From assembly GCA_964187785.1 (NCBI GenBank), contig OZ076409.1, positions 70,682,001 through 70,746,000 on the forward strand: a DNA stretch of 64,000 nucleotides, given 5' to 3'. The position numbers and the translations under genes are program-made. The stretch comes from Amphiscolops sp. MND2022. Lineage: Eukaryota. Positions 1 through 35,216 of this stretch are shown in pieces. Each line of letters begins with the position of its first letter. Position 1 is the first letter of the stretch. The notes under the pieces were generated by a model. The model was not told where the DNA came from, searched no databases, and saw nothing but the letters and a program-made list of their open reading frames with translations.

Positions 1-218
1 AAAAAATGGTATTGATTGAATTGTATATAACAAGTAATAAAAGTTCAAATTGATTATTACGTTTCATTATTCAAGCTAAAACTTCATAACATAGTTTAAT
101 TAACGTCAACGCCACACACTTTACATCAACGCCCACCGTCTGTGGGCATGCCGAGGCATGCCCTTCGACGACATATACCAAATACATACCCAAACGACGC
201 CCGTACATCCCGGGCTAG

Positions 219-1529
219 GTGCCGGGATTTCTATTCGATAAAGTATTTTGCGCGGTTGGGTAGGGCCCCGTGAGCGCGCCAGGGGATTGTGTTAGAACAA
301 CCGGAAATTCGGCATACGATTTTGGCGATTTTCTAAACTATCCATACGATTTGGCTCAAATTTGGCATACGGGTTCCTGAGACAGATATAAGAACTAATT
401 CCTACTGGCGTTTTGCCCGGAAAATTTTTTTTGTTGCCCAAAATTGAAATTTTCGGCAAAAAAATGCGATTTTTTTTGAAAAATTTTTTTTGAGAGGCCA
501 TATCTTTTTTCAGGGTGCCCGGAGCGGGACGCGTTAAACTGATTATAAACTCTACGGTTCATGGGCTTTACGGAGAACCTAAGCTCGTTTCGCTCGGACA
601 AATAGTCTTGGAGATATAACGGGATTTTTCGGGAATTTTTTGAAAATTTTTCTAACGGTCCAGCTTATCTTTGCCATTTTTTCAAAAATGCACTCGCCTA
701 AAGGCCTCCCCTGGCCGGTTTTATTCCCAGCAAAACCATTTGGCCCTAAATACGGAGTTTCAGCGTTCCAGCATTCCCGGGCGAAAAGTTGTGGGACTTA
801 GAAAAATTTCAAAATTTTTCAAAAATTTTTTTTCCGTTTTCCGCCCTCCCCCCCGAGGGGAAAAGACCCCCCAACCAGTAATTTGAGTGAATTCATGTGG
901 AAAGGCCATGTTTAGAGGAGAAAAATGCCGTTTAGATCGTCTTTTTATTTTAACCTGTCGTTGACTTATGTTGTTTTGAAGGTGATGTTTGGATGTGTGA
1001 AGCATGTGAAAAGGTGTTTTATTGTGTCTTTAGCTCTTCTAAAAGCCATTGAGATACAAGGTGTAGCACTCAGAACGTGTTTAATTCTAAATTAGCAATG
1101 CATCAACACTTTTTGTGTCTTTGGACTCTGTTAAAAAAAATTTTTCCGACTAAAATCAAAAATTATTTATAATTATTCACATTTTTTTCTGATCTCATGA
1201 CTCGAAACAGTTGAGTACATTCCATCTCCCTTCCCGGGGGAGATGAGAATGTACTCTCTAAAGACCAGGTACTACAGTACTTACCTTCCCCGAGCAACGC
1301 CCCATAAAAATTGCGTTTTGATCATTCTATTTTGACATAATTCTATCTTTGTAATTTGACTGGAAATGAAGAAAATCCGCACGTGCTCTTTTATATCAAG
1401 TATCTTAACAACGCCATCTCTTTAACGTCAACGCCCCATAGTTCACATCAACGCCCACCGTCCGTGGGCATGCCGAGGCATGCCCTTCGACGACGTATGC
1501 CAAAGATATTCCCGAGCGCGTTAGCCTAG
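219..1529 (+). mobile_element. Unit, family A (1311 bp; GAGTACATT-type internal hairpin)
   Basis: GTG start, CTAG end; hairpin 1213-1256; close copy at 37813-39127. Confidence 0.8.
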
Positions 1530-3500
1530 GTGCGGGGGGGAAACCCCAACAAATATATTGGAGGATTCGGGTAGGGTCCTGAATCCGATTTTAACTCTAA
1601 TAGCTATCGATAGGAAATCTTGCAAAAATTTCGGGATCTCGTGATCTAACCATAGGATTTTAAAGTTGGAGCGGCCCCCACCAGATTTTCCGAAAATTAG
1701 CGCCCCCCACCGGGTTCCATACCCCGGAAAATTTTTTTCTGGCCACACGGGCGACCGTTAGGGGGTCATTTTAGGGGTAAAATTCATATTGGGCCACATA
1801 ACTTTTTTTCTGTTGATTTAAAACTTTAGGACCCTGCTAAAAGTTTCTTGACCATGTTGCGGGGGCTCCGGAGGTCCAAACCAATTTTTTCTATCTTGAA
1901 GCTATCTCCAAGTACCCCCCCGCCCAAACCGTTATTTTTCCGGAAACGAAGGTCTTTGACCCGGAAGGAGTCGTCTGAGCGCGGGGTCGTTAGGTGATGT
2001 TTTGGGGACGGCCTTGAGACGAAGTGGGGGACATGTAGTTTGCCAACCTCAGTTTACCCCCCGGACGGGAAATGACCGTTATATGAGCGGCAAAAATGTC
2101 CCCCTCCACGTTTTACCGCTATTTCCGGTGTGAAGGAGTGGGAGTAGCGCGTCGGGTGCCATATATCAAAAGTAGGTTTAGACAAGGATCTATCGGAAAC
2201 ATGTGGTTTGGGACCCCCTGGACCAACCCGTTAGCAGGAAATGGGGCTTCCGGCCCGTTTTTTTACGGTTAAAAACGGAAAATGGGCATTGAGGGGTAAA
2301 TATCTCGTGAACGCGTGGAGCTACGGTGTCCTTCACTACTACAAGGTTTCATACCCATGATATGGTGCCTTCAGGGGGGCAAACAGATTTCCGCTATCTA
2401 TCACCGTTACGGACTTGGCCCCCCAGCCTAACCGCTAAGTGACCGGAAATGTCACTTTTTGAGCCCAAAGGGTCGGTCCCAGCCAGGGAACGTTAGATAA
2501 CTTATTGTAGTACTCATTGAGATGAGTTGGGGGACATAGTTTCAGTCACCCCCCGTTACCCCTTAAGACCGGAAATGACCGTTATGTGAGTAAAGTTGCC
2601 GTTTTTGTCCTATTTGAAGGGCATTTAGATGCGGAAGGAGTGGTAATAGGTGCTTGGACACTATATGAGGTAAGGGAGGATATGAGGCGAGCATTCGGAA
2701 ATAACCGTTATGTTGACCCCAAAGTCCCCGTGGTACCGTAAACGACCGGAAATGGTCAAATTTTCTGTTTATAGGGTACAAATGGTTGGTATTTTGTAGA
2801 TAAAAGTATCTATTAGGTGTTTCGACGGTCTGCAGTAGTGAACATAGTCATGAAACCTTGTGGGGGGTAACGGTATATAGCACCGGAAGTCCAAACCGTT
2901 GGAGACAAGATAGGTTTTTTGGTTTTAAAATGTCTTTCGGCGTACTTTTGTCGACTATTAAGGACTACTTTTAAAAATTAAAGTTTTTCCATATAGTTTT
3001 AGAGACTCCGAAACCTCAACCAACATAACCGTTACCTCATGATAGCCTTTCAAGTTGGCCTGGTGTCAACTTGGAAGGGCTATCCTTCAAAAATCGTCAA
3101 TCAAGTGTGTCTTTGGGTATGTTTGTATCATTTTAGAATCAAATAGAGCTTCAAGAAAAGTTTGCCAACGACAAAAACTATGTCGTGATGATTCCGTTAT
3201 TAGAATAATAGTTAGCAAATTGTTGAGAAAATTGATTTTTTCCATATAAAATGTGTCCTAATTGCCAGGAAACCTATTTAACTTACAAATGGTATTGATT
3301 GGAATGTATGTAACAGAGTTATAAAAGTTCAAATTGACTATTACGTTTCATTATGGAAGCTGAAACGTAATATTTTAGTTTAATTAACGTCAACGCCACA
3401 CACTTTACATCAACGCCCACCGTCTGTGGGCATGCCGAGGCATGCCCTTCGACGACGTATGGCAAATCCCTTCTAACGACGCCCGTACATCCCGGGCTAG
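1530..3500 (+). mobile_element. Unit, family B (1971 bp; GATAGCC-type internal hairpin)
   Basis: GTG start, CTAG end; hairpin 3041-3084; close copy at 60430-62404. Confidence 0.8.
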
Positions 3501-5496
3501 GTGCGGGGGGGTAACCCCAACTTTTTTCTTGGAGGAATCGGGTAGGGTCCTGATTCCGAGCTTAGTGCCGCCAGCTATCGTTAAAAACCCATACCTTTTA
3601 AACCCGATCTCGGGAACTAACCACGCCCCTTCTTTAATTTTTTGGCCCCCACTCACTTTTTGAGAGTAGATCGCCCCCCACTGGGTTCGATGTTGGGCAA
3701 AAATGGAGATCATGGGTAACGGGGACCGTTAAGGGGTAACTCAGGGGGTAAAATTTATTTTTTGCGTCATATCTTTTCCCCCCGTGGATTTAGCGCTTCC
3801 GGTCAGCAGACAAAACCTCATGTACGTGATAAGGGGCCTCCATAGGTCCAAACAAAATTTTTCTATCATGCACCGTTACGGACTTGCCCCCCCGGCCCAA
3901 CCGTTATTTTACCGGAAATTGCACTTTTTGACCGGGAAGGAGTCGTCTGAGCACGGAGTCGTTTGGTAATGTTTTGTAGTGCATCTGGAGACGTGTTGGG
4001 GGACATGTAGTTTGCCGATCCCAGTTTACCCCTCAGACGGGAAATGACCGTTATGTGAGTTTTGAAAATGCCCCCCTTCAATTTTCCCCGCAATTTCCGG
4101 TGTGAAGGAGTGGGAGTAGCGTGTCGGGTGCCATATATCTAAAGTAGGTTTAGACAAGGACCAACCGGAAACATGTGGTTTCGGACCCCCTGACCCAACC
4201 CGTTAGCCGCTATTAGGGTGATCGCCTCCTTTTTTTGCTGTCAAAACCGGAAAACGGGCATTGAGGGGTAAATATCTCGTGAACGCGTGGAGCAATCGTG
4301 TCCATCACTACTACAAGGTTTCATACCCATGATATGGTGCCTTCAGGGGGGCAAACAGATTACCGCTATCTATCACCGTTACCGACTTGGCCCCCCAGCC
4401 TAACCGCTATGCGACCGGAAATTGCACTTTTTGAGCCCAAAGGGTCGATCCTAGCCGGGCAACGTTAGGTAACATATTGTAGTACTCATTGAGACGAGTT
4501 GGGGGATCTATTTTCAGTCGCCCCCCGTTACCCCTTGAGACCGGAAATGACCGTTATGTGAGTAGAATTGCAATTTTTATACCTTTTGAAGGGCATTTAG
4601 GTGCGGAAGGAATGGTAATAGGTGCTTGGACACTATATGATGTAATGGAGGTTGTGAGGAGAGCATTCGGAAGTAACCGTTACGTTGACCCCAAAGTCCC
4701 CCTGGTACCGTTAACAACCGGAAATGGCCAAATTTTGTGTTTATAGGGTACAAATGTTTGGTATTTTATGGATAAAAGTACCTGGAAGGTGTTTTAAAGG
4801 CCTCCAGAAGTGAACATAGTCATGAAACTTTGTGGGGGGTAACGGTATATCGCACCGGAAGTCCAAACCGTTAGTTACAGAATAGATTTTTTGGTTTCAA
4901 AATGTCTTGAGGCGTAGTTTTGTGGGTTGAATCGTCATAATATCAACTAATACGGACTTTTTTCGGAAATAAAATTTTTTCACATTAGTTTCAGGGACCT
5001 CCAATGTTTCAGTCAACATAACCGTTACATTTTGATAGCCTTTCAAGTTGGCCTGGTGTCAACTTGGAAGGGCTATCCTTCTAAAATCGTTAATCAAGAG
5101 TGTTTTTGGGTAGGTATATGTTGCATTAGTACCAATTAGAGCTTCATCAACAGTTTGCCAACGGCAAAAACGATGTCGTGATAATTCCGTTATAAGAATA
5201 TTAATTAACAAATTGTTTCCAAAGTTGATTTTTTCCATTCGAAATGTGTCCTAATGCCACCAAATTGAATAAAATAATAAATGGTATTGACTAAAACTAA
5301 ATAACATTGAAAAAGAAGCTCAACATTTTTAATAGGTCTCATTATGGAAGCTGAAACCTCACGTTTTAACTTAATTAACGTCAACGCCACATACTTTACA
5401 TCAACGTCCGCCGTCTGTGGGCATGCCGAGGCATGCCCTTCGACGACGTATACCAAATTCCTTTAACACAACACCCCCGAGCGCGGTAGCAGCTAG
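3501..5496 (+). mobile_element. Unit, family B variant (1996 bp), last unit of the left array
   Basis: Close copy at 54478-56469; ends CTAG followed by non-array sequence GTATCAAC. Confidence 0.8.
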
Positions 5497-5539
5497 GTAT
5501 CAACATCCTCGAAAACAATCTGAAGAAATTGAATACTTT

Positions 5540-10309: not shown

Positions 10310-10684
10310 ATGAAGTACAAGAGGCAGAAAAAGGTCAAAACCATTCTTAAAATGTTCAACTTCTTGGGGTTTGAACCGCCTTATACGGTGGTGATGGATG
10401 GGACATTCAGCATGGCTGCCCTGAATAACAAAGTCAATTTGGCTGAACAGATTCCCATTTACTTGGGTCTATCGGATCCCTCGGCTGTCAAACTTTGCAC
10501 AACTAAATGCGTGTTGAAAGAACTGGAGAAGCTAGGATCTTATTTTTACGGAGCTTTACACATTCTAAAACAGTATCCCCCTATTAAATGTGCCCACAGT
10601 AGTAAGAAACTGAAGTCAGCAGCCTTGTGTTTACAAAGATTAGCAGAAAGTGGATTCAAGTGCGTTCTCGCTTCACAGGATTCG
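10310..10684 (+). CDS. UTP23: rRNA-processing protein UTP23 homolog (PIN/Fcf1 domain), coding exon 1
   Basis: MKYKRQKKVK...FLGFEPPYTVVMDGTF...LCTTKCVLKELEKLG...GALHILKQY..IKCAH...AALCL...VLASQD matches the UTP23 family; ATG at 10310; donor GTGAGT at 10685, phase 0. Confidence 0.92.
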
Positions 10685-10897
10685 GTGAGTTTCGGTTATG
10701 CTACAAACATGCTGATAAGAATCTGTTCAATAAGAAACACATTGCTCCGTAAAAGCTTTGTTGTTTCAGCACGTGCGGTCCTTTTTAACTTTAACTCCAA
10801 TGCGTGAAATGTGAAATCGGCAGATCGCCTCAGAAAAAGAGGCCCATAACAAGTTCTGTGGAAACTTTTGTTAGCGATTGCTTCCACTGAACTTGAA

Positions 10898-11160
10898 AAC
10901 AAGACGGGAACGACCCAAGTCGGACCATATCTAAGGCTCAAAATAGCAAAAGGACTTCAAAGTGTCAAGAGAACGTTATATCCGAACTTTGAAAACGTTA
11001 TATCCGAACTTTGAAAACGTTTTTTTTAAAAAAAACTTGAAATTTTTGAAAAAATGTTTTCGGAAAATGTCGCACAGTGCCGATAAATGTAAAAGGGGGA
11101 CCCTTTCGGCACGTTCGGTTTTATAGGTTTCCTTGAAAACGTAAAAAAGGGGTTACTCTT
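10898..11160 (+). mobile_element. DINE-1/Helentron-like repeat, partial, in UTP23 intron 1
   Basis: aacaagacgggaacgacccaagtcggaccatatctaaggctcaaaa terminus shared with 11457 and, inverted, with 7931. Confidence 0.55.
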
Positions 11161-11456
11161 TACACTCATAGTCGATAGAAAAATTTACTATGCATCGTCT
11201 AATGCTTGTGACGTTTGGTATCGACGAACACGGTAACCGAGAAATTGTGAAATAACTGATAAAGTATTTGGGTTACTGGCAAAACGATAGAAGTTTTCTT
11301 AACTTTTGCCTGTTTGAGTTTGTCCATCTTATTATTCAGGGTAGGATCTGCTGAGATGAGCAGGTTGAAAAGGTTGTATCAGATCCCCTTCAAGGTTTCT
11401 ACTCCCTTCGTCCTTTATTCTATTGTTCTTGGGCAATTATTGAAGAGACATTTAAT

Positions 11457-11883
11457 AACAAGTCGGGAACGTCTAAAGTCGGCGCTATATCTAAGGCTCA
11501 AAAAGTGCAAAGTTTTTAAAATTGTAAAAAGAGACCCTTCGGGCTTTTTGAAAATGCAGTTTGTTGCAAAATTTCAAAAAAAAATGAAGGGGGTCCCTTT
11601 GCAGATATTTAAAAATTTTCGAAAAAAAGTCTCACAAAGTCCAAAAGTCGGCGGAGAAAGTCTCATAGTGCCGAAAAATTGAAAATGGGGACCCTTCTGC
11701 TTTGCAATGGTTTGTATTTCATGTTAGAGGCTTTGGATGCGTTCAAAACCAAGTACTAAGTACTTTCGGTAAAAGTGCACAGTGCACAAAAAGTGGTACA
11801 TACATTTGAGGTCTGTGGTATGACGAAAAAAAAACTAGCCACTGTAATAGTCGGGCACTTTTCACTAGAAAAGCGCCGACTAA
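11457..11883 (+). mobile_element. DINE-1/Helentron-like non-autonomous repeat in UTP23 intron 1
   Basis: Starts aacaagtcggg..agtcggcgct; ends in hairpin tagtcgg...ccgacta; subterminal inverted repeat. Confidence 0.6.
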
Positions 11884-11914
11884 TAAAGTGCAATAATTGC
11901 GTGGCTTTTTACAG

Positions 11915-12192
11915 ACGCTGCAGGAAGTGACAGAAAAAACCCGAGTACCCCTCCTGTACCTGCACAGTTGTACTCTAATTTTGAAGAAGCCCAGTTTCTT
12001 TGCACTTGAGAAGTGTGAGCTACAAAAGGTGTCTGTTGAGACAAGGGATCTTGACACTTTATCAGAATTGAAGAAGCAGGAGGGTCTTTTGAAAGAGGAG
12101 GAACCTGTCAAAATATCAAAAAAGAAACTGATCAAATGGGAGAACAAGCTGAAGAAACGTCAACTGTACAGAGAGAAGAGAAGAAAAGCCAG
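11915..12192 (+). CDS. UTP23: UTP23 coding exon 2
   Basis: Acceptor tttttacag; TLQEVTEKTRVPLLYL....LILKKPS...LSELKKQEGL continues the UTP23 alignment in phase 0; donor GT at 12193, phase 2. Confidence 0.85.
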
Positions 12193-12603
12193 GTTTGACT
12201 CAACCGCCACTGATCATTTTTTTTCAAATTTCGATCATTTTTGTCCGTTTGAATATGCATTAGAGTTTTCACAGATGGAGCATTACTTTTTACTTCAAGC
12301 GATTCAAGATTCTAGTTTCTAGTGAACCATAACGTAGATCTTGATTACTATTTTGACTCCTGATTCCCTAAAAATATAAATTACTTCTATATTTCGATCA
12401 TGATACCTTTTTTCTTACAAAATTCCCATGCAAATGATTACACAGTATCATAGAATAGTTATCGTTGTTCGGTAAGAAAATGTTTTAAAAATGGATCTTA
12501 AAAATTGAACCCTAATAGTGAAAATGTTGTAAGGTCCTTGTGTTGAAAAGTTGTGTGGAAAATGTGATTAAATGGGTTTCATGAAATTGGTCATCGTTGG
12601 CAG

Positions 12604-14896: not shown

Positions 14897-15688
14897 TTGA
14901 CCCCAAAGTCCCCCTGGTACCGGAAGTGACCGGAAATTGTCAAATTTTGTGTTTTTAGGGTACAAATGTTTGGTGTTTAATGGATAAGAGTGCCTATTAG
15001 GTGTTTCGACGGTCTGCAGTCGTGAACATAGTCATGAAACCTTGTGGGGGGTAACGGTATATAGCACCGGAAGTCCAAACCGTTGGAGACAGGATAAGTT
15101 TTTTGGTTTTAAAATGTCTTTCGGCCTACTTTTGTCGACTATTATGGACTATTTTTGGAAAATAAAGTTTTTCCATATAGTTTCAGAGACTCCGAAACCT
15201 CAACCAACATAACCGTTACCTTATGATAGCCTTTCAAGTTGGCCTGGTGTCAACTTGGAAGGGCTATCCTTCAAAAATCATTAATCCAGTGCGTTTTTGA
15301 GTATGCTTGTTTTACATTAGAATCAATTAGAGCTTCAAGAAAAGATTGCCAACGACAAAAACTATGTCGTGATGATTCCGTTATTAGAATAATAGTTACC
15401 AAAATGTTGATAAAGTTGATTTTTTACATTTCAAATATGTCCTAAATGCCAGAAAACCTCTTTACCAAACAAATGGTATTGATTGAATTGTATATAGCAG
15501 CTAATAAAAGTTCAAATTGAAGATTACCTTTCATTATGCAAGCTGAAACGTCATATTATAGTTTCATTAACGTCAACGCCACATACTTTACATCAACGCC
15601 CACCGTCTGTGGGCATGCCGAGGCATGCCCTTCGACGACGTATACCAAATTCCTCAAACACAACACCCTCGAGCGCGGTAGCAGCTAG

Positions 15689-18600
15689 GTGGTCAGTGCT
15701 GTTGCGTTCATTTTTTTCCGGCCGTGGGGGAGGGCCCCTCTGAGGCCGGTCATTTTTCAGGTAACAGCTTTCTTATACAAAAAAGCGGGAAAAAACCTCA
15801 GTGCTCAAATCCCAACCGTCAGAATGAGCTGAAATTTGGCATGTAGCTAGTGCATTGCAAATGATTAGGATGGGTTATAACGCTATGTTTGGCAAAATTG
15901 GTTTTGTTGCATTTTTTTTGTCATATAGGGCCAAAAATGGCCTTTTTTGCGTATTTTTTGCTTGACTAGCTAATAACTCGCGTTGGGTTGGTACTAGCGA
16001 TACGGGTGTGGGGTATGGAATTGAAAGATTACCAAGTACCTTGCTGATGACGTTATTTGATTTCCGCTCACATCACCCCCCACGCCGGAAATGCCCAATT
16101 TGTCACTTCCGGTCGCAATTTTTGACTTTTTTGGATGGAGTCAAAACCCATTTCCGGTGTGAAGGAGTGGGTTGAGCGCTTCGACCACGATATACTAAAA
16201 GTAGGTTTAGACAAAGTCCTATTAGGAAAAAAGTAATGTAAGCCCGTACCTATCACCCCCTCGCCGGAAATAGGGGTCACGCCTCCTTTTTCTGTGTTGC
16301 AAAAGTGACATGTGCACATTTGTCCAACTCCGAAGCCCCGGAGCACCGTGGGACCCTTATACTTTCTAAACACCTATCCCACACGCTACCGGAAGTGACC
16401 GGAAGTTTCACCGGAAATGACATCCTTGGACCGGAAATGGTCAAAAAATGACTTTTCAATGCAAAATAGACACATTTGGTGCGATTTTTAGGCAAAAAGC
16501 ATAGTTCGTGAAACGCTTGTTGCAGTTGGAAGGGCCATTGTTCAGCAAGAATGCGTACAGCATTACGTAGCACATCAAGTAGTTGATACTTTTTCGTCCA
16601 TAATATCCTTAGGACCGGAAATGGCCATTTTTGAATCGGAAACTTCTTCAGCTTGATTTTTAACAGGTTTTTCCGCAATATTAGCGTAGGAATTGCTCCT
16701 CGGATGCTGTAGGTCTATTTTAAAACTAGCTAACTGCTTCTTAGAAATGTATTTCAGAAGTCCCAACCAATTCCAGAATACCGGAAATAAGAGTAATTGC
16801 CTCCTTTATGACCTTTGAATAATAAAGTGTTAAAATCCGCATATTATTTTTTTCCACACTTGTTGCTGAGATTATATCTAAGCAATAACATGTGCTTGTC
16901 ATGAAGTGCTGTAATGTGGGAGTTACGAATATTGCTATTTAAGAGTATTACATACGTGAATATCCGCCGTAATAAAGATTTTTTAAAACAACCACTTTTG
17001 AAGTCCTATAGATTGTCCGCACACCCGAAACAATTCAAGTTTCTAGTTTCGATTTTAAGGCTTCCGCGACTATTTAGTTGAGATGATAGTTTTCACGTTC
17101 TCTGCAAAACGTGCATTTCATTGTGTTTTTGACATTTATTGGGCTGTTTCACATTGTAATTCAAAACTAATTGATCATACAATTTGGAACAATTGAAAAT
17201 TTTCAATTGAACATTAAATGTTTTAATAGTTTCTCTTTCGTTGAAGATACTATTTTGTGGCCATTAGAACAGGTTGAATTAGTTGAATAAGTAGCCAGTG
17301 CGATACATCGTTTAATACATAGCGTTTGACATCGGTTTTTTTGCGAACAAAGACAAGCATGATTTGTTGAAAGTTTTTACCATATCGCTTCAAATCGGGT
17401 GTGACAAACAAGGAATTTCTCGTTTTATGTGCTACTCCGAAAGCAACCTGAAAACGCAAATCGTTCTATTGAATTATCGAGATGAAACTAAGCATTTCAA
17501 GTCTGGATTTCAATTTAATTCTATCACTCCGGTCTATTTTTATGTCGCAAGAGTGATAAAGCGTGTTAGCAAGGTTAAACACATCGAACAATTTTAATAA
17601 TAAAGCCTCCGGAAAGGGAAGAAAAAATGAGTTTTCCTGTCAAAACTATGATAACCACGTACGAAACATCAAGTTTTTGTATTGTTCAATAGTCCAAAAC
17701 GTGAATGAAGTTTTTAAATATCCAAGCGTTTCTAATCAAGCATGCGTTTCAAATGTCTGACAGGGCAGCATAGTTCTCAAAAAACATTGCTTTCAATGTG
17801 GTTTGATACCAGCAAAACGAACGTAGGCACAACCAGATTCTCAAATTTCTTGCAAAACAGCCGATTTCTTTGAAAATCCTAATTGATTTCACAGGGTATA
17901 TGGTGAAACCCTGTTGGATTCCAAAAATGAAAAGCTGATTTCTTGGGTTTGCGAGATAAAAGACAACGGGAATCTGAAAGCAAGTCATCTCAATAAAATA
18001 CCTGTTGCTCTTTAAACAAATGGACTTTAGTAGTGGAAATTTTTTCTCAGACACTTTCGATCAGAGAATGTTTGAGTCCTAACGTTCGAATCAGGTTGGT
18101 TTCAGGTGGCTCGAAGTGCCAGCTGAACCAACCTTTCAAATAAAGAAAAACCCCACATCTCCCTTCATGCCACGCTACCCCGTATAGCGTTTCAACTTGA
18201 CAGAAGTTGGAACGTTTGATTTTGGCGTCGCTTGGGATTGACACACCAGTGTTGATACTAAATTTGGCAAAGAGAAATCGCAGAAATGATTGTTTCTTTT
18301 CTTCCCTTTGATTTAGTCTGTCGAGCGTACAAAGCAGTTTGGGAAACTAACTTGCATTTCCACTGAACGAAAAAAAGTAGTAGCCTTGCAAACTCCTGGA
18401 AGAAATTGAATCAGGTTTTCCTATTTGTGAGATCAGCTGTCACTCAATTATCAATTACTTTTTTAAAAATTTTTAGGAACAACTAACCTAACTCTGCTCG
18501 ACTCTCTTGAATAATGCAACAATCGTTTACTGATCTGTGCTCGTGAGAAAAAACTCAACTGCAGGCTCAAAAACAATCTATATGTATTTGGTTTATTCAC

Positions 18601-18759
18601 TGCAAAGCTTTTTTTCACACCATGTGACTCAACTATTACATGTATGTAATGAAACCAATAACACCTTCAACTATCAACGCCCACCGTCCGTAGGCATGCC
18701 GAGGCATGCCTTTCGACGACGCGCGCCGGAAACAATCTAACGGCGCCACCCGCTTCTGG
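15689..18759 (+). mobile_element. Unit, family C (3071 bp) with AT-rich cargo
   Basis: Ends CTGG; near-identical copies at 44294-47365 and 47366-50436. Confidence 0.85.
17250..18330 (-). pseudogene. Possible highly decayed DIRS/Crypton-type tyrosine recombinase remnant inside family C
   Basis: Minus-strand fragments in the expected order: FLRFLF, FEPPETNLIRTLGLK, CCPVRHL, RNSLFV, VSHWL..LI; many stops; catalytic residues not identifiable. Confidence 0.3.
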
Positions 18760-20029
18760 GTGGCCGTGTCTTTTCGACGTGCTTTTGCATTGAGGAGTGG
18801 GTAGGGCCCCGCGACGACCTAGAAGAATTGGATGCTCACCGAAACGTGCAGAATTCTACGAGATCTCATAGTTTGAGCCATACGACTTTTCTGAAATTTG
18901 GCATGTGGCCTGGAATTGGTGAGTAGGTAAAACGTGTAGGAGGTGATTTTTCCCAAATTCCACTGTGAGACGAGATATGGGCAAATAACGGTCCCAAAAA
19001 TGGCAAAAATGCACTTTTTTCAACTTTGTCAGCCCATATCTCGTTCCCAGGTGCCCGGAGCGGGACGCGTTAAGCTGATTATAAACTCTAGGGTGTTGAG
19101 GCTGTACGGGGAAGTCAGGCCCGTTCCGATCGGACTTGTAGTCTTGGAGAAATAACGGTATTTTTGGGGAACCTTTTCTAACGGTCCAGCTTATCTTTGC
19201 CATTTTTTCGAAAATGTACTCGCCTAAAGGCCTCCCCCTGGCCGAATTTACTCCCAGCAAAACCATTTGGCCCTAAATACGGAGTTTCAGCGTTCCAGCA
19301 TTCCCGGGCGAAAAGTTGTGGGACTTGGAAAATTTTCAAAAATTTTCAAAAATTTTTTTTTTCGTTTTCCGGGCCCCCAATGAAGGGGAAACGACCCCCC
19401 AACCAGTATTTTGAGTGAATTCATGTGGAAAGCCCTTGTTTTGACGAGAAAAATACCGTTTAGAACATCTTTTTATCTTGACTCAACGTTGACTTATGAC
19501 GTTTTGAATGTGATGTAAGGATGTAGGAGGCATGTGATAAGTTGATGTTTTGAGTCTTTATCTCATATGAAAGCGGTTGAGATGCAAGCTGTCCTGCTCA
19601 AAACGTCTTTCGTTGTAATTTTCCAGTGCACCAATACCCTTTGGTGTCATATAAACATACTTTTTGTCGATATATTAACAATTTTAATGTATTTATTCCA
19701 ATTTTTATTATCTTATAACTCAAAACAGTTGAGTACATTTCATCTCCCTTTCGGGGGAGATGAGAATGTACTCGCTAAAGACCTAGCGCCATGACCAAAA
19801 GTTTGAAACCCACGTTTTTTATCTTCTTACAGACTTGTTTTTGTATTTTTTCGGAATTTTTTAAAAATTAATATACTTGAAAAACATTACTTGACTTTAC
19901 TACTACAACCCACCTCCAACGACAACGCCCCCTGCTTGCATCAACGCCCCATCGTCCGTGGGCATGCCGAGGCATGCCCTTCGACGACGTATGCCAAATG
20001 CCCAGTGCCACGCAGTCTTTCCCCGCTAG
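18760..20029 (+). mobile_element. Unit, family D (1270 bp)
   Basis: Copy at 21333-22598; GAGTACATT hairpin. Confidence 0.8.
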
Positions 20030-21332
20030 GTGGCCACGACCATGGTTTCTTGCGTATCTTGTCGAATCCTTTGTCGTTGCCGGCCGGGGAGGGACCCGTT
20101 TGCCGGCGTGTGTAGTGTGGGGCCCCCATACCCAAAAAGTGGTATTTTTTTCAGAGATCTCAAAATCGGCCCGTCAGAATTGCCTGAAATTTGGCATGAG
20201 GCTCCCAATTGGGGAAAAAATAAGAAGTGTAGAGGGCGACTTGTTCGGGTAAATATTGTATGTTGACTTTTGGCCAAAAGAGTGTTCCCCCCCAACTTGG
20301 GCAAAATCACATGAGGTGTAAAAATATGATCACAACTTTTGAACCTTTGGATTTAGGGGTACGGTCGTGGACTACATTAAGCAAGAGCTTTGGTGCGCGG
20401 GTAGGATAGATGGGTTTTGATCCCAGTACCTTCAACCACTTTTGAGAAATTAACGTTTCAAACAAACATCCGGGAGGTATATGTTGCCCCTGAAGGCAGG
20501 TTTTTCGCCATTTTCAATGTGTTGGAGTGGGTTTAGCGTAACGTGTGTGGTGTGCTTTTTTGTTGCCCGTGTGCGGAGCGTTGTATAGAGGTGCTGGTTG
20601 TTGAAATTGGAAAAGCTGCTAAAAAGTTATACCTATACCCCCCCTACTGTCTCTGCCATTCAATTTTTTTTCAACTTCAGGCCTCCCAAAGGTGAGAAAC
20701 TTCCACACAACTAGTATTGCAAGTGAATGCATGTGGAAAGTACTCGGATAGACGAGAAAAATGAGCTATAGAACGACTCTGTAGCTTAACTTGACGTTGA
20801 CTTATGACATTTTGAGTGTGAGCTTGCTATGTGAGAAAAAAATTCAAAATTGAAAATCGAAGCCAAGTCTCATCCAAAACTCATCGAAATACGTTCAATC
20901 CATCCCAAAGCGGATTAATTCCAGATATATAGTGCAGCAACACTATTCAAGACCATTTGACACAATTTTACTAGTTTTGACATTGTATTATTCATCCGAG
21001 AGCACAAAACAGTTGGGTACATTCCATCTCCCTTTCGGGGGAGATGAGAATGTACCCGCTAAATGACACGCACCATGGCCTAATTTTTACCTTTATGCGA
21101 CGTTTTCTAGGCTTTCGCGCAAGCCCACTAATATTTACACTGGTTTCTTTCTCTTTCACTCCAAACATTCCGTCCGTACTAACCACCTTACACACCACCA
21201 GCAGCTCAACGACACATCTGTAACGTCAACGCCACATACTCGCATCAACGCCCACCGTCCGTGGGCATGCCGAGGCATGCCCTTCGACGACGTATGCCCG
21301 TTGTCACAACAGGGCGCCCCTACATTCTCTAG
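20030..21332 (+). mobile_element. Unit, family E (1303 bp)
   Basis: Copy at 35217-36520; GGGTACATT hairpin 21015-21057. Confidence 0.8.
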
Positions 21333-22598
21333 GTGGCCGTGTCTTTTCGACGTGCTTTTGCATTGAGGAGTGGGTAGGGCCCCGCGACGACCTAGAAGAA
21401 TTGGATGCTCACCGAAACGTGCAGAATTCTACGAGATCTCATAGTTTGAGCCATACGATTTTGCTGAAATTTGGCATGTGGCCTGGAATTGGTGAGTAGG
21501 TAAAACGTGTAGAAGGTAATTTTTCCCAAATTCCACTGTGAGACGAGATATGGGCAAATAACGGTCCCAAAAATGGCAAAAATGCACTTTTTTCAACTTT
21601 GTCAGCCCATATCTCGTTCCCAGGTGCCCGGAGCGGGACGCGTTAAGCTGATTATAAACTCTAGGGTGTTGAGGCTGTACGGTGAACTTGGGCCCGTTCC
21701 GATCCGACTTGTAGTCTTGGAGAAATAACGGTATTTTTGGGGAGGTTTTTCTAACGGTCCAGCTTATCTTTGCCATTTTTTCGAAAATGTACTCGCCTAA
21801 AGGCCTCCCCCTGGCCGAATTTACTCCCAGCAAAACCATTTGGCCCTAAATACGGAGTTTCAGCGTTCCAGCATTCCCGGGCGAAAAGTTGTGGGACTTG
21901 GAAAATTTTCAAAAATTTTCAAAAAAATTTTTTTCGTTTTTGGGCCCCCAATGAAGGGGAAACGACCCCCCAACCAGTAATTTGAGTGAATGCATGTCAA
22001 AAGCCCTTGTTTTGACGAGAAAAATACCGTTCAGAACATCTTTTTATCTTGACTCAACGTTGACTTATGACGTTTTGAATGTGATGTAAGGATGTAGGAG
22101 GCATGTGAAAAGTTGATGTTTTGAGTCTTTATCTCATATGAAAGCGGTTGAGATGCAAGCTGTCCTGCTCAAAACGTCTTTCGTTGTAATTTTCCAGTGC
22201 ACCAATACCCTTTGGTGTCATATAAACATACTTTTCGTCAATATATTAACAATTTTAATGTATTTATTCCAATTTTTATTATCTTATAACTCAAAACAGT
22301 TGAGTACATTTCATCTCCCTTTCGGGGGAGATGAGAATGTACTCGCTAAAGACCTAGCGCCTGACCAAAAGTTTGAAACCCGCGTTTTTTATCTTCTTAC
22401 AGACTTGTTTTTGTATTTTTTCGGAATTTTTTAAAAATTAATATACTTGAAATACATTACTTGACTTTACTACTACAATCCACCTCCAACGTCAACGCCC
22501 CACTGCTTGCATCAACGCCCACCGTCCGTGGGCATGCCGAGGCATGCCCTTCGACGACGTATGCCAAATGCCCAGTGCCACGCAGTCATTTTCGCTAG
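21333..22598 (+). mobile_element. Unit, family D (1266 bp)
   Basis: Copy of 18760-20029. Confidence 0.8.
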
Positions 22599-23993
22599 GT
22601 GGTCGGGTATTTTTTTTTACTCGTATATGACGTTTGCGAGGCTTTGGGGAGGGCCCCGTGCCGAGCCTGTTATCCGAAATTCACCACTACCAGATCTGGT
22701 ATAAATAAGCGAGATCTCGAAAACTATCCATTAGAATTCCCTGAAATTTTGCATGTGGCTCCTAATCAATGAGTAATGAAAAAGTGTAGGAGTGACGGTT
22801 GCTGAAAAAATTGTCTTTGTTGCACTTTTTGCGCATTTTTTGTCGCATTGTTGCGTTTTTTATGTCATTTTCCACTTTGGAGGCAAAAAAGTCATATATG
22901 CTTTGTTCCTAGCGTATCAAGTGTGGAGCACGAAAAGTTGCAGCATCTTTGATTACGTCTGCTGTGAAAATTTGGTTGCCCTCGGCTTACCCCCCACTGA
23001 GATAGAGGGGTGCTTCCGGTCTTTTTTGACCCCTAAGTTTGGGAAATTGCTAATTTTCGTAATAAAGCCGTAGATTTAGCGTGTGCACACCCTGCTGAAG
23101 ATTTGTTAGGCATTTTGAGATAGATCCAATGACATGCGTTCAGTTCACCCCCATCACCCCCTGGACCGGAAATAAACTTTTTTGTGTCCTTTCAGACCGG
23201 AAGTCTCCATTTTCAACGGTAAGGAGTCATTGTACGAGCAACTAGCAGGGCATCAAAATTGAAGTACAATGTGGGGTGAGCCAAGTTACCACCTGTTGTC
23301 CAGTCATGGGTACCGCCATGACCGGAAATGGGGTCAAACCCCCCCTATTGGTCATTTTTTTATCAGTTTGACTTGTGTTTGGTCCACATACAAGTCGGGT
23401 AATGCAATTGAACCAGTGTGAGCATAAACTACACGTTCACTGCGTAGCCGTAAATGACACTGACAGATACCGGAAGTAACCCCTTGTGACCGGAAGTTGT
23501 CAATTTTGACCGGAAATGGCCCAAAAAGTAGCGTAAAAGCAGTTTTTCATTAGTTTTAGAGGTATTTCTTTTTACTTTTTCTACGCTGATTGATTTTTTC
23601 TACTCACAAAGCTAAGATCGTGGCTTGTTTGGCTAAAGTTCTGAAAAATGATCACCTTTATCACCCCCGATAGCCTTTCAAGTTGACCTTGGGTCAATCT
23701 TGAAGGCTATCAGTTCAGAAAACGAAAAATAGTGGAAATTGGGTTTCTCCTTTTCGTTGTTATTTTTTCCATAAAGTCAATTTGTTAAATAAGGCTTTTG
23801 TTCACCTGAGTGATCTGAAACTTGTCCAGAGGTGTCACACACACGAAAACCATTTCAAGTTGAAGTAAACATATGAGGGTAGTATTAGACAACATCACAC
23901 ACACTTACCAACGCCCACCGTCCGTGGGCATGCCGAGGCATGCCCTTCGACGACGTATGCCAAATAGCGCCACAGGGCGCCCCCATTTGCTAG
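22599..23993 (+). mobile_element. Unit, family F (1395 bp)
   Basis: GATAGCC hairpin 23669-23711; distantly similar to families H and L. Confidence 0.8.
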
Positions 23994-26009
23994 GTGGTCG
24001 GGGTTTTCTCCCCACCTTTATTTGCGAGCGCGGGAGACGGGTCCTGTCGCGAGCCTTAGATACCAAAAATAGCCTATCCGCGACCGGGTCAAAAAAATGC
24101 GATCTCGAAAACTAGCCGTACGATTCGGCTGAAATTTGGCACACGGCTTCCTATAACAGTTCTAAGAAACATTTACTACTGACGTTTTGCTGGCAAAAAT
24201 CGAAAAGTGGGTCAAAATAACGGTTTTTGGGGTAAAAAGTAGCGTTTTTTTGAAAATTTTGCATTTCACAGCCAATTACTCGAAAATGGTCGATCCAGCG
24301 CAGTAACGCCTTGCTGATTTATTGTTGGGCACGTCAAGAAGCGTACGTACACAAATTTTGGTCCATATCGGACTGAAACTTGGGGAGATATTAACGGTAG
24401 TTTGGGGGTTTCAAACCGCTATTTTACCGGAAATTGCACTTTTTGACCGGGAAGGAGTTGTCTGAGTGCGGGGTCGTCTGGTAATGTTTTGTAGAGCATC
24501 TGGGGACGTAGTGGGGGACATGTAATTTAATGACCCCGGTTAACCCCTCGGACGGGAAATGACCGTTATGTGGGTTTTAAATGTGGCCCCCGCCAATTTT
24601 CCCCGTTATTTCCGGTGTGAAGGAGTGGTAGTAGCGCGTCGGGTGCCTTATATCAAAAGTACGTTTAGACAAGGACCTATTGGAAACATGTGGTTTGGGA
24701 CCCTTTGAACGGACCCGTTAGCCGCTAATGGGGTGACTGCCTCCTTTTTTTGGGGGTAAAACCGTAAAACGGGCATTGAAGTGAAATTAACTCGTGAACG
24801 CGTGGAGCTATCGTGTCCTTCACTACTACAAGGTTTCATACCCATGATATGGTGCCTTCAGGGGGGCGAACAGATTTCCGCTATCTATCACCGTTACGGA
24901 CTTGGCCCCCCAGCCTAACCGCTATGTGACCGGAAATGTCACTTTTTGAGCCCAAAGTGTCGGTCCCAGCGTGGCAACGTTAGGTAACCTATTGTAGTAC
25001 ACATTGAGACGAGTTGGGGGATTTAGTTTCAGTCACACCCTGTTGGCCCGTTAGGTCGGAAATGACCGTTATGTAGTGAAAAATGGGATTTTTATAGTTT
25101 TTGAAGGCCATTTCGGGCAGGAAGGAGGGGTAATATGACTTTGGACACCATATGATGGAAGACGTGAAGTGTGACCAGCATTCCGGATTAACCGTTATGA
25201 TGACCCGGAAGTCCCCCTGGCACCGGAAATGACCAAAAAAATGTAACATTTTGTGTTTTTTGATTAAAAATGTTTGTTATTTAACCGAATAAAGTACATG
25301 TTAGGTGTTTCAATTTCTTCCAGAGGTGAATATAGTCCAATTACATGGTGGGGGGTAACGGTATATTGCCCCGGAAGTCCAACCCGTTGGGTCTGAGTAT
25401 GTTTTTCGGGTTTTAAAATGTGTCAAAACGTACTTTTGTGTAATAAATCTCTATTGTAGGCTAATAAGGACCATTTTTGAAGAGTTTAAATTTTTTCATA
25501 GTAGTTTGTGGAACACCAAAAACTTAAATAACATAACCGTTATAATTTGATAGCCTTTCAAGTTGGCCTTGTGTCAACTTGGAAAGGCTATCCTTCAAGA
25601 CTCATGCAACAAAGAAGTTTTTGGGTACATTTGTAATGCTTTAGTGTCAATTAGAGTATCAACAAGAGTATACCAAGCACTAAAACTATGTCTAGTTTTC
25701 GTTATTAGGATATTAGTTTCCTGAATATTTGTCGGAAATGCTTTTTTAAATCTCTTTTAATGTGGTCTAAATACTCTGAAAACACTTTATCGAACCAATT
25801 TTCTTGGATGAACCTTAGTAACAATACTAAAAATCGTAGACAACCTTGCTTCGTTTAAATATTTGAAGCTGAAACCGCACCTTACCGTTGCTCAAACTTC
25901 AACCCGACGCCCCATAGCATACATCAACGCACATCGTCTGTGGGCATGCCGAGGCATGCCCTTCGACGACGTATGCCAAATACCTTTAACCCGACGCCCG
26001 CAGTCCTGG
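23994..26009 (+). mobile_element. Unit, family G (2016 bp)
   Basis: Ends CTGG; near-identical copy at 31812-33827; core related to family B. Confidence 0.85.
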
Positions 26010-27079
26010 GTGGTCAAGGGGGATGCCCATCAGAAAATATTGCGAGGCCGGGGAGGGTCCCGAGAGCCGAGCACATTCTATCAATTCCTACCTTCAGGAT
26101 TGCGAAGTATTTTAACCGATCTCGAAATTCACCCGTAGGATTTGTCTGAAACTTTGCATGTGGCTTTATCTGAAAAATTTAAGAACTTTTTTCTGCTGAC
26201 GTTTTTCCAGGAAAATTCATTTTGTAGGGTTTTTTTGCGTTTTTTTGGTTTTTTTCATCTTTGTTCATCTTTGATTAATCAATGACCGAATCAAAGGCCA
26301 TTTTCACCATGAAGGAAAGCCCGTAGCGGCAAAGTGCACTTTTATGAAAATCATCAACGGTCAACGGTCTTTCGAACGGTCCAAAAAAATTTCCCCCCGG
26401 GGGCAACCAAAGTGCCGAAAAGTGCCAAATTTATTTTTTTGACTGAATCACTTTGATCAAATTGATGATTTGAGCAGCCAGAACGGTCCGCACGGTCTCG
26501 GACAATAAGGTCAAAAATTGTCAGCATCCAATGGGGGTTCCAAAAATGTAATTCGTTCACCTGTAGGAGACATCTGAAAAAAGTTGATTTTTTGGAGTTT
26601 TGGCATTATGACTGATCGGATGATAAATCATTGCATCACGTTGAGTTGCATTTGATGCAGCACACGAAGCAGCTGCAGCGAACTTGAAACTACTTAGGGG
26701 GTTGTGGTTTACTATCTGTAACAAGCAAAATATCCCTTGGGCAAAAGGTATGCCAAAAAGTGCCTCAAAGTTTTAATTAAGTTGTTGCAAATCGGCTAGC
26801 AAAATTCATTGTCACCGGTGTTCCGTGAGTTGCGCAGCATCTCGCGGGAACAACGGTGCTTGTTTCGAACGCAAAACCCAACATACCTCTTTGGTGACGT
26901 GACGGAGGTCACCATTAGCCTTTTTCGGCAGTGTGATGATATTTTTTTTGTTGAATTGTGAAAAACATACACAAAAGATTTAGCGTGGGATATTTGTTTG
27001 TGTCATACTTCAGTAACAAACTTTCAACCGTTTTGCTTAGGCCTCTACCTAGCAGTGCTCTAAATCGCTCCATCGCTAG
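26010..27079 (+). mobile_element. Atypical unit M (1070 bp) lacking the terminal hairpin
   Basis: Normal head motifs and CTAG|GTG end, but no GGCATGCC block; 5' half similar to the next unit. Confidence 0.6.
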
Positions 27080-30000
27080 GTGGTTGGGGCGTTATTCCCC
27101 ACGAAGTTCGCGGCCGCGGGAGACGGGACCCGCGGACCGCCCATCCAATGCAAAAATATACACTCTAAACAGCACCATTATAAACACGATCTCGAAAATG
27201 AACCGTAGGATTGTCTTGAAATTTTGCATACGGATAGAAGAGAAAATTCTAAGAACTTTTTCCTGCTGGCACTTTTCCGAAAAAAATGTCCTTCATGTGT
27301 TTTTTTGGGTTTTTTTGTTTTTTTCTCATCTTTCTCATCTTTGATTAATCAATCACTGAATCAAAGGCCATTTTCAGCATGAAGGAATGCCCGTAGCGGC
27401 AAAGTGCACTTTTACAAAAATCATCAACAGTCAACGGTCTTTCGAACGGTCCAAAAAATTTTCCCCCGGGGGGCATCCAAAGTGCCGAAAAGTGCCAAAA
27501 TATTTTTTTTGTCTGAATCATTTTGATGAAATTGTTGATTTGAGCAGCAGGAACGGTCCGCACGGTCTCGGACCATAAGGTCAAAAATTGTCAGTGAGTT
27601 ATGGTGACGACCAAAATGACATTGGTTGAGCTGTAGGAGGCCTCTGAAAAAATTTGAATTTTTTGAGTCTACAATCCGAGCTGAACTGTTACGTATTATG
27701 AACTTTTCAGTACTATGTTGCCAATGACCGAGTACAGATAGATGCATGGGTCAGCCTTATTGAAATGAACATTGGGCACTGGGCTACCGATTGAGTACAA
27801 AAATTATAGCCTAGTTGCTGTAGTCGAAGAAAAAAATTCTCAGAAGTGTTACTTTCAATTTGTCATGTTGACTCGGAGTTACAAAAAGGTGATTTTCTCG
27901 CCAACAACGGTCCGAAAGGTCTTCGACCATGAGATCAAAAATTGTCAGTGTGCTATGGTGACGCCCAAAAACCTACCGGAACAAGCGTAGGATGCTTCTG
28001 AAAAAATTTCGAATTTTTACGTCGGCCCAAGAGTTATTGTGTTACATCGTAACAACTTTTCGTGTATGCATATCTCCTGACAGAGTACAGATAGCATCAT
28101 GGGTCACCTTTATGAAAGTGAACGTGGGCCACTGGTGAACTGCATGGTTATAAAAAATTTAGACTAAGTGCTGCACGGCGTGAATAATATGCCAAGATGT
28201 GTTATTTACGATATTTTAGCACGACTCGGACTGACAAAAAGCCTATTTCTGCCCCAGCAACGGTCCAAACGGTCATCAAGTGTAAGGTCAAAAAATGTCA
28301 GTGTGACATGATGGCGCCTAAAAACCCACCAGAACATTGGTAGGAAGCTTCTGGAAAAAATTCGAATTTTTACGTGGGCCCGAGAGTTATGATGTTGCAT
28401 CGTAGCAACATTTCGTGTATGCATATCTCCTGACAGAGTACAGATAGCATCATGGGTCACCTTTTTGAAAAAGAACGTGGGCCACTGGTCTATCGATTGG
28501 TTGTAAAAAGTTTTCAATCACTGCTGCACGGCGTGAATAATATGCCAATATGGGGTATTTAGCATTTTTTTGCACGACTCGGACCTACAAAAGTCCCATT
28601 TCTGCTCCACCAACGGTCCGTACGGTCTTCAACCATAAGGTCAAAAAGTGTCAGTGTGCTATGGTGACGCCCAAAAACCCACCAGTACACTTGTACAGTG
28701 CTTCCGAAAAATGTTGGAATTTTTAGGTGAGTCCGAGAGTTATAGAGAGTTATGTTGTCACATCGTAACTACATTTCGGGAATGTATATCTCCTGACACA
28801 GTACAGATACCAATATGGGTCATCTTTTGGAAAGTGAACGTGGGCCACTGGCCTACCGAATGATGATAAAAAGTTTTCACCAGTTGCTACAGGGAGTGAT
28901 AAAAGTGCTTACATGGGTTACATAGCATTTTTTCAGGCGACTCGGACTTACAAAAAGCTCATTTGCTCGCGAACAACGGTCTGTACGGTCTCCACTCAAT
29001 GGGTCGAAAATTTTTTGTGGGCTATGGTGACGCTCAAAAACCCATCAGTTTACTTGTGGGATGATTCTGTAAAAATTTAGTGTTTCCGTGCAGACTATGT
29101 TACATATTACATTGGGAACCGTGTTTTTTTCTCACCAAAATCATGTTTTTGAGTGCCCAAAAACAATTTTTAAAGCCCAGTAGCCACCTAAAATGTTCTT
29201 TTGCATAACATGGGATGTGAATAACGTGAAGAAAGTGCTCACTGTGGATTTGGAGTTATCTCGAAAAAATCAGCTGCCATTAGACGTTACATTACATAAA
29301 ATCGTTCCTTACATATCGATTCATGGGTTGAGTCAAAAACAGCTAAAGTTCTTTTTCAGTCAATTAAGACACTTTACTGTTCACAACCAAGTGTACAGCT
29401 GACGTCGAACCTATTTGACCTTTCACAATGGTTATAGTTCAATTTTGAAGTACAAAAGCCTCTTTGACAAACAAAATTCCATGATGAAATTGCTTTCCAA
29501 ATCATTTTTTGAAGTATAGGAACGCCATTTTTAGCCGAGAACCATCTAATATCCACTTCTCTTGGCCCAGTGGCTTGTGAAAAATACAACTGGGCATTGA
29601 CAAGGCACAAGGACCTTACTTCGAGTAGTAATGTGCCACAATATTTGCTAATCGATAGCAAATTTTGTTGAAAATTGATACAACATCACATTTTTGGTGG
29701 ACTCGAAATGACAAAATGGAGCTTCAGCAGCAACTATTGGCTTTTAGTGCAACTCACTGGCACTGTAGCTTACGAAAATACGGTTTACAGTAGTTTCATG
29801 CTACTTTTTCAGAATCTGAGGTACATAAAAATATCATACTGAATAGACATATAACTTCCACATCGGAATTTTTCCGGATGTGTCACCGCTTTTTTGGTAT
29901 CAGCGGTCCTACCAACACTGTTTTTGGTCTAACACTAAACCCGAAGATCAACGAAGGTGTATATCAGACTTGTAAAATCAATGCAAGGACTTTCGACATG

Positions 30001-33827: not shown

Positions 33828-35216
33828 GTGGTTGGGGCGGTCCCCAGAACGCACAAGGAGGCGCGGGGAGGGTCCTGCGCCGACGTAGAATAATTTCATA
33901 TAATACTAGTATCCTACATGGGTGTTTTAGAGGCGATTTTGGAATCTAACCGTAGGATTTGGATAATTTTTTGCATGCGGCCATAACTCGAAATTCTAAG
34001 AACTTTTTCCTACTGTCATTTTCCCCGCAAATTGTTTTTTGTTGACTTATGGCCGAAAAACCGGAAATAACGTCCTTTTTAGACGTTATATCCGAAGTGT
34101 CGTCATAACTTTTTTCCAGGGCATGCTAGCGTTCTCGTTCACTTTTACACTTAGTTGCAGCATCTCAAAATACAACTGGTGGAAAATTTTGGTTGCATTC
34201 GGATCACCCCCCACCGAGATAGAAGGGTTCCCCCCTCCAGTTTTACCCCCCAAATTTGCAAAATAGCCAATTTTGAGCATGAAGCCGAGGATTTAGCGTA
34301 CCCGCACCCTCCTGATGTTTTGTTGTACGTATTGGGGTCAATCTGACGACATGTGTGGTTTTCACCCCCAACCCCCCCTTGGACCGGAAATGACACTTTT
34401 TTGTGTTTTTTGGCAGAATTTAGCCTTTTTCATTATTAGGCAGTCGTTTTAGGGACTCCTAGCAGGATATCGAAATTGAAATACAACCTGATCACAACCC
34501 AGTGACAACATGTTGGCCACTTGGAGGTATCATCATGACCGGAAGCGGGGTCAACCCCCCTTTTTGTGACCGCTTTTTGACCTTGTGCACCAAAATGCCA
34601 ACATCTTGAGGCCTAATGAGGCATTCAAATCTGTACAAAGATAAAATGTTAGACAACCGAAGTCCCGGAAGATCTTTAGCATATACGGGAAGTTACCCCC
34701 CATGACCGGAAGTTACCCAATGTGACCGGAAATGGTCCAAAAATTAATGTAAAGTTGAATTTTTCACTATTTCAAGACCACTTCATTGAACATTTCCTTT
34801 CCCAAAACTAGCGTACTGGCTTGTTTTGCTGAATTTGTGGAAATTGATGAGCTCTATCACCCCCGATAGCCTTCGAAGTTGACCTTGCGTCAACTTTGGA
34901 GGCTATCGATAAAGAAAAATGAACAACAAAGTACATTGTTGCTCTCGTTCTTTTCCCGTTGTTTTTCCTCAAACATTCTTGAGACATATACATGGCCGTT
35001 AGTTGAAATCAATATTTAGCCCATGTTATAGCTGGAGCAGCGAAGCGTTACACAGACTAGTGTGGTTTTGAAATCACACTATTTAAATTAACAACTGACC
35101 GTCTTAGTCAACTCCACACATTCATACCAACGCCCACCGTCTGTGGGCATGCCGAGGCATGCCCTTCGACGACGTATGACGAATCCATTCCAACGACACC
35201 CGCAGTCCTCAGCTAG
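33828..35216 (+). mobile_element. Unit, family H (1389 bp)
   Basis: Copy at 51708-53096; GATAGCC hairpin 34865-34907. Confidence 0.85.

Follow-up and report, generated by a model that had tools for sequence, protein, structure and literature searches.

A shuffled head-to-tail array of non-coding units in Amphiscolops sp. that may have grown by rolling-circle transposition into its own junctions

In bacterial integron arrays, mixed cassettes are joined at one site. Among transposons, canonical Helitrons (Helitron1) have a 16-20 bp hairpin located 10-15 bp from the 3' end (PMC13286980; PMC11417382), insert widely at AT and form single-family tandems (PMC4778049; PMC12001565); such tandems and occasional abutting Helitrons are described in several reports (PMC12001565; PMC13404089; PMC13085455; PMC9659126), and in bats Helitron copies sometimes adjoin 5' to 3' (PMC4778049). 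In the bat element Helraiser, the hairpin loop is important and the stem can be swapped, and loss of the hairpin or the end leads to read-through or to new ends (PMC4778049). Helitron2 elements show compensatory changes in their terminal hairpins (PMC3627910), and Replitron-1, an HUH element, carries a palindrome at its right end and inserts immediately behind RG (PMC10288648). Cryptons (PMC3212892; PMC13465315) have direct repeats of 4-6 bp and lack terminal inverted repeats (PMC3212892), and repeated insertion at the same site gives rise to tandem transposon dimers and arrays in the case of Drosophila R1 and hobo (10.1101/158386). An acoelomorph genome with many unclassified repeats has been reported as well (PMC10565955).

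The window analysed here is a stretch of 64,000 nucleotides of Amphiscolops sp. MND2022 (contig OZ076409.1, positions 70,682,001 to 70,746,000); the array features and the host gene discussed below lie on the + strand of this window unless stated otherwise. It contains an array of about 30 non-coding units, 1.07-4.7 kb long, arranged head-to-tail and in shuffled order. Segment 1 of the array (1..5496) comprises a unit end and three whole units, and segment 2 (14897..64000) starts with a unit cut by an assembly gap, followed by 27 whole or partial units that fall into 13 types (our own grouping from pairwise identities), in the order CDEDFGHIGJEAAAKAACCLJMBBBBB. The segments are separated by non-array DNA (5497-14696) and a 200-N gap that precedes segment 2. 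The non-array stretch encodes the host gene UTP23 in two exons with approximate boundaries (10310..12322), separated by an intron of about 1.2 kb; the exons are 64% and 48% identical to the protein of Convolutriloba macropyga, and the next named matches, at 48-53%, are from nematodes, in keeping with a probable acoel origin of the DNA. A stop-free frame of 232 codons at 7960-8658 resembles, by eye, the tail of a LINE ORF2 and has no Pfam match. A second dispersed host repeat family, absent from the array units, occupies 5700-6050, 7700-7830 and 11080-11700.

The window includes 31 junctions, namely 30 unit-unit junctions of the form CTRG/GTG[CG] (the slash denotes the boundary; an example, CTAG/GTG, is at 215..221, with the cut placed before or after the G) and one array-host junction, CTAG/GTATC, at 5496. 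All 31 upstream ends read CTRG (26 CTAG and 5 CTGG), in agreement with the 3' CTRR of Helitron1, and each of the 30 units begins with GTG (TG, should the cut lie one base further on), so that the 5' TC of Helitron1 is absent. No nested units were detected in the array, none of the 30 starts is 5'-truncated, and no target duplication beyond the shared core was seen. At 18 further CT[AG]GGT sites in the window no unit begins, so that the hexamer by itself does not suffice as a target.

The position at which one unit gives way to another can be determined from close copies with different neighbours. In 10 such pairs (8 at 97-99% and 2 at 93-94% identity), the identity of the flanks stops 1-5 nt upstream and 2-7 nt downstream of the junction, with the exception of one pair with a common linker type in which it extends for 20 nt upstream; at 18760-22598, a single unit is flanked by two copies that are 97% identical. 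The variable linker between the palindrome described below and the junction (171..214 in the first copy) moves with the upstream unit: across 27 junctions, Mantel tests show that linker similarity tracks the unit upstream (r 0.63, p 0.0002) and not the one downstream (r 0.09, p 0.053), and the choice of CTGG or CTAG always moves with the upstream unit type. Because the linker follows the upstream unit, the palindrome block is excluded as the usual crossover point; the switch between units occurs 36-51 nt beyond the palindrome, not in it. Some linkers and one palindrome allele (at 62320) have moved between lineages. Adjacent units of the same type are enriched (8 of 26, p 0.00015), which indicates that local duplication also contributes to the array.

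The palindrome itself is a 34-bp sequence that in the first copy (137..170) reads CGTC-TGT-GGGCATGCC-GA-GGCATGCCC-TTC-GACG. The window contains 29 standard copies, whose 18-bp core is exact and on the + strand in every case, compared to 0.02 copies expected from 100 shuffles. The palindrome precedes 29 of the 31 junctions, those at 27079 and 31811 being the ones that lack it, and the junction follows 36-51 nt after the 34-mer ends, which puts it 44-59 nt beyond the 20-bp core. On its 5' side are CAACGCC motifs, two of them about 18-20 nt apart in the first copy (107..133); exact motifs precede 27 of the 29 copies (two in 16 copies, one in 11), and all 29 when one mismatch is allowed. In 5 of the 29 copies (18685..18718 and those starting at 47291, 50362, 51632 and 62320), as well as in a metagenome contig, an A..T allele alters both arms. 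A divergent 30th copy (31142..31175) retains the dyad, with the CWWG cores of the p53 motif considered below broken. A covariance model of the palindrome detected nothing beyond its 30 input copies except for one match with an E-value of 8.9. The initial annotation of this DNA was thus accurate as to the form of the hairpin, its position some 40-60 bp before nearly every junction, the one or two CAACGCC motifs upstream, the variant that swaps both arms and the divergent copy.

The same annotation held that compensatory changes conserve the hairpin in all families, and this proves to be an overstatement. The 31 aligned sequences amount to only 5 distinct rows, and two-sided changes are found at 2 of the 13 pairs (8-27, G-C to A-T, and 12-23, A-T to G-C), a count that is reached in 75 of 500 shuffles; the covariation score is equalled in 13 of 500. 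The 29 standard copies hold one of these changes and the divergent copy brings the second. An arm-swap test gives p 0.00015, yet it rests on the same two events. All 30 of 30 standard copies retain the unpaired T7, T28 and C30 as well as the G6.T29 wobble, which points to sequence-specific recognition in addition to pairing. One single-arm change, C1>G in pair 1-34, is present at 54394, and the lack of any single-arm intermediate at pair 8-27 among 30 copies favours symmetry. Every A..T copy also has C at position 5, so that one three-base haplotype is shared, and the A..T copy at 62320 belongs to a unit whose five compared siblings carry the other allele; on the simplest reading, the A..T allele is probably a single haplotype that spread via block exchange. 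The minus strand of the palindrome folds slightly better in 15 of 17 cases, by 0.21 kcal/mol on average, and there is thus no sign of palindrome extrusion. The palindrome is maintained chiefly as a near-invariant sequence, with symmetry respected in two events at most. The proposed selection on pairing or dyad symmetry accordingly survives in part, given that the dyad is kept in both two-sided changes, but the events are two at most and the unpaired bases are equally fixed. Among the three functions suggested for the hairpin, a single-strand termination signal fits best, namely in a Helitron-like element with a CTRG end. The palindrome is not the crossover point, and Rfam lends no support to a known RNA. 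The annotation overlooked both the covarying left-end hairpin and the fit to the p53 consensus that are described below.

The strong covariation in the array belongs to a different hairpin, located about 40-60 nt inside the left end of each unit (for example, 1563..1586 in the unit at 1530-3500). Its loop, KAGGG or AGACGGG, is conserved, and its stem varies by family. Across 18 units, the native arms pair at -8.4 kcal/mol compared to -5.8 kcal/mol for swapped arms (permutation p 5e-5), with a similar result in 12 distant units, although the unit's own arm is the best partner in just 5 of the 18; among un-bulged stems, two-sided changes occur at three stem positions. The arm-swap test was used in place of RNAalifold, which recovers only the 4 inner pairs of this hairpin, the outer stems being displaced by bulges. 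In 16 of 18 units, it is the + strand that folds better. G.T pairs outnumber A.C pairs by 13:2 in the left-end hairpin and by 29:5 over four hairpins, counts that derive from related rows and so are not independent; in the 12 distant units, the ratio is 7:2. Substitutions are strand-neutral (C>T 19, G>A 21), and no strand-biased mutation signature is apparent. The excess of G.T together with strand-neutral mutation points to the + strand being single-stranded at some stage.

The unit bodies had been described as often unalignable, which is partly right, but most types have in common an internal inverted repeat and a block that spans about +105 to +220 from the start, with a conserved core at about +105 to +150 (for example, 325..367). 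The inverted repeat is of type B in the 1.3-kb units (1213..1256), where it lies about 260-280 nt before the end, and of type A in the 2-kb, 1.39-kb and 4-kb units (3041..3084). Arm swapping is not significant for type A (p 0.17); for type B it gives p 0.004, a value that is discounted here because one of the 9 rows is too long. The two classes (1213-1256, 3041-3084, 30787-30834) measure 43-44 bp, have similar distances to the end and carry G.T pairs on the + strand. Since most of them have the GTG start, left hairpin, block, internal repeat and palindrome in common, the unit types are remote relatives. A Pfam search with 85 ORFs from eight unit regions yielded 5 weak matches, all below the cut-off, and hence no coding remnant among these ORFs. 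The longest unit includes a 353-bp tandem repeat of 3.4 copies (27870-29075), and the 2-kb units contain an internal duplication. A conserved mid-body motif at 2125, 16154 and 11 other places links the 2-kb units with those of 3 kb, two groups that have little else in common.

Searches for related sequences elsewhere yielded a single match, the 1.2-kb marine metagenome contig L001, in a pattern scan of metagenome contigs. It carries the A..T palindrome and the left-end hairpin at 805-940, its junction reads CGAG/GTG rather than CTRG, and over its body the identity to the closest unit is about 73%. Pattern scans of viral contigs with three motifs and of genome contigs with two motifs had no matches, blastn against plasmid and phage sequences found none, one sequencing run gave short contigs of low depth without joints, and no tRNA was detected. 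The Rfam comparison proposed in the initial annotation came out empty, with no match at the gathering score in the 64 kb and four sub-threshold ones over the junction region 1300-3800.

Two units deviate from the common plan. In the unit with the divergent palindrome (31142-31175), the linker is recognisable and the CTRG end is lost, the next CTAG/GT being 152 nt further on; it is followed by a unique 484-nt segment (31328..31811) that starts with GTAAC, ends with CTAG and is a candidate captured flank. The unit at 26010..27079, which lacks a palindrome, is 84% identical to the next unit over its first 589 nt and then has a unique 480-nt tail with a CTAG end. By analogy with the Helraiser products, both look like the outcome of read-through past a lost end or of new ends, and the unique pieces are candidates for captured host DNA. 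At both junctions without a palindrome (27040-27085 and 31755-31818), the junction sequence itself has a complement of 6-7 bp upstream.

We propose, with a probability of roughly 0.5, that the units are non-autonomous rolling-circle transposons of the HUH type, similar to Helitrons, in which the palindrome serves as 3' stop and docking signal and insertion occurs at the elements' own ends. The observed part of this mechanism consists of the precise ends, the unit-wise change of neighbours, the structured ends and the CTRG terminus. An enzyme encoded elsewhere would nick the + strand at a junction and the strand would be peeled off, with the left-end hairpin recognised by its shape and loop; the palindrome would be recognised by sequence and symmetry, and the process would stop at the next CTRG. 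The unit would then circularise, such that the circle joint equals an array junction, and the enzyme would dock on a resident palindrome and join the newcomer there, giving rise to mixed arrays without nesting. When an end is lost, read-through would capture flanking DNA. Docking on resident palindromes would explain the invariance of the palindrome across families as opposed to the drift of the left stem. The cut could be CTRG/GT or CTRGG/T; with the latter, both the 5' T and the target T that are the rule in Helitrons would be preserved. In the 64 kb, neither a transposase nor a circle was seen, nor were solo copies, left flanks or empty sites. Against the proposed mechanism, the units start with GT or TG instead of TC, the palindrome is larger and further from the end, and L001 ends in CGAG.

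The comparison with described elements is similarly mixed. With Helitron1 (HLE1; Helraiser, Xuan-Feng) the units share the 3' CTRR end, a GC-rich subterminal palindrome, the lack of target duplication, a head-to-tail joint like a circle joint, and apparent read-through and new ends. They differ in their GT or TG start, in a longer palindrome 3-4 times further from the end, in the covarying left-end hairpin and in the stacking of about 30 units of 13 types without nesting. The hairpin spacing of Helitron1 is not observed, as the 34-bp palindrome lies 36-51 nt away and hairpins nearer to the end are weak and variable; as for insertion at AT, no duplication is seen and one right flank, the only one bearing on this point, reads GTATC. 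Helraiser inserts at AT in AT-rich DNA genome-wide, whereas insertion into own ends is proposed here, and its requirement for loop over stem is like the left-end hairpin of these units (PMC4778049). Hairpins near both ends, compensatory changes in a terminal hairpin and the internal tandem repeats of one unit recall Helitron2/Helentron (HLE2), in contrast to the left hairpin centred about 40-60 nt inside and the CTRG end; the 8-15 bp asymmetric inverted repeat of Helitron2 is absent from 12 types (the longest match averages 4.5 nt within a unit and 4.6 nt to other units), and the 5' T start with insertion before T fits solely if the cut is CTRGG/T. The elements would work like Helitrons yet lack defining features of both Helitron1 (5' TC, hairpin size and spacing) and Helitron2 (asymmetric repeats). 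Every unit follows RG, the dinucleotide behind which Replitron-1 inserts, and the palindrome likewise lies towards the right end; Replitrons are reported from algae, plants and protists (PMC10288648), and neither their terminal direct repeats nor a Rep HUH gene was evident in the units and ORFs considered here. The R1 and hobo tandems likewise arise from a target preference, but involve one family, as opposed to many types with a target that is apparently the elements' own junction. Circle-type units without terminal inverted repeats are a feature shared with Cryptons; as regards the 4-6 bp terminal direct repeats of the latter, the core shared at the junctions is GGT or so at most. Unlike the cassettes of Cryptons and integrons, these are non-coding, none of the 85 unit ORFs is a recombinase and the junction lies outside the palindrome. 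Among the papers listed in searches of largely open-access literature, none concerns mixed self-stacked arrays like this one; a repeat-library entry may exist.

The 20-bp core of the palindrome (144..163, no strand assigned) raises the question of a host factor, given that the p53 response element consists of two RRRCWWGYYY half-sites 0-13 bp apart (PMC3061056). All 29 standard copies match two such half-sites without a spacer at 19 of 20 positions, the mismatch being at the centre. A p53-family tetramer of the host might bind the motif as duplex DNA, and the site would then drive the next unit, or the circle junction, in the manner of an enhancer or promoter, the hairpin being a by-product of its symmetry; as the main reason for the conservation of the palindrome this is compatible with rolling-circle transposition but appears unlikely. 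The right half-sites of the two alleles, first base aside, equal GGCATGCCC and GGCATGCCT, and the second allele contains the entire laboratory half-site AGGCATGCCT, with GGGCATGCCC likewise listed in Table 2 of PMC3061056. Each arm is itself palindromic, a property that hairpin formation does not require, equally good fits arise from random GC-rich dyads in 2.2 of 10,000 trials, and the specificity of p53 is conserved between distant species (PMC2807882). The 19/20 fit, the CATG cores and the lack of a spacer are shared with p53 response elements, but in the divergent copy the two cores have become CGTG and CACG, so that it departs from the consensus while the dyad stays; the flanking bases outside the 20-mer are equally invariant, the fit was noticed after the fact when many factor families could have been tried, and binding leaves the exact junctions unexplained. 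A p53 site may be a second function beside the end signal; among the papers listed in a search of largely open-access literature, none reports such a site in a Helitron end. A bolder and more doubtful possibility is an animal counterpart of the integron, in which an HUH element targets itself and whole cassettes are gained, and perhaps lost, at one regenerated junction, with the terminal palindrome doubling as a p53 site through which a DNA-damage or stem-cell factor of the host would license growth of the array.

The exact, unnested joins in fixed orientation could also be the work of a tyrosine recombinase, whereby circles of Crypton- or integron-like cassettes would re-enter at a short RGGT core and recreate the site, with the palindrome as an arm-type binding site. 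The repeat structure of Cryptons cited above would suit this scheme, and the sole host flank continues the core to CTAGGT; given, however, that CTGG or CTAG moves with the upstream unit type, which leaves a shared core of about GGT at most, that conserved 11-13 bp inverted repeats around the junction are lacking, that no recombinase is among the 85 unit ORFs and that the read-through-like units better fit strand peeling, a recombinase seems improbable. Slightly less probable still is copying through a long structured RNA transcribed from the junction G, with the promoter in the 3' end of the upstream neighbour, following the logic of HeT-A. The + strand G.T(U) bias, the covariation in several hairpins, the invariant upstream block and the start at G would agree with it, but there is no poly(A), 5'-truncated starts are missing, the spacing from motif to start varies by 15 nt, and the Rfam result quoted above offers nothing at the gathering score. 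An ordinary satellite library, shuffled without a dedicated enzyme as unequal crossovers occur within the 50-bp block common to the units, would account for the enrichment of same-type neighbours and for the linkers and the palindrome allele that switched lineages; crossover in the block would, however, move the linker with the downstream unit and it follows the upstream one, and the switch falls in a core of 3-7 nt, too short for homologous recombination, so that this reading is largely refuted and retains very little probability. An intron-like reading (GT...AG) was rejected, as 5 units end in GG and L001 differs.

What is surprising at this locus is less any covariation in the palindromic hairpin than the array itself and the way it is targeted. 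If the rolling-circle interpretation is true, a rolling-circle transposon can take its own junction as a safe harbour, a choice of target that is directly testable and that would provide a route to site-specific, repeatable insertion of cargo. It would also allow the classification of a repeat that is likely to be missed by tools that require TC...CTRR ends or terminal inverted repeats. Should the p53 site prove true as well, it would link transposition to a stress pathway of the host among animals that are studied for regeneration.
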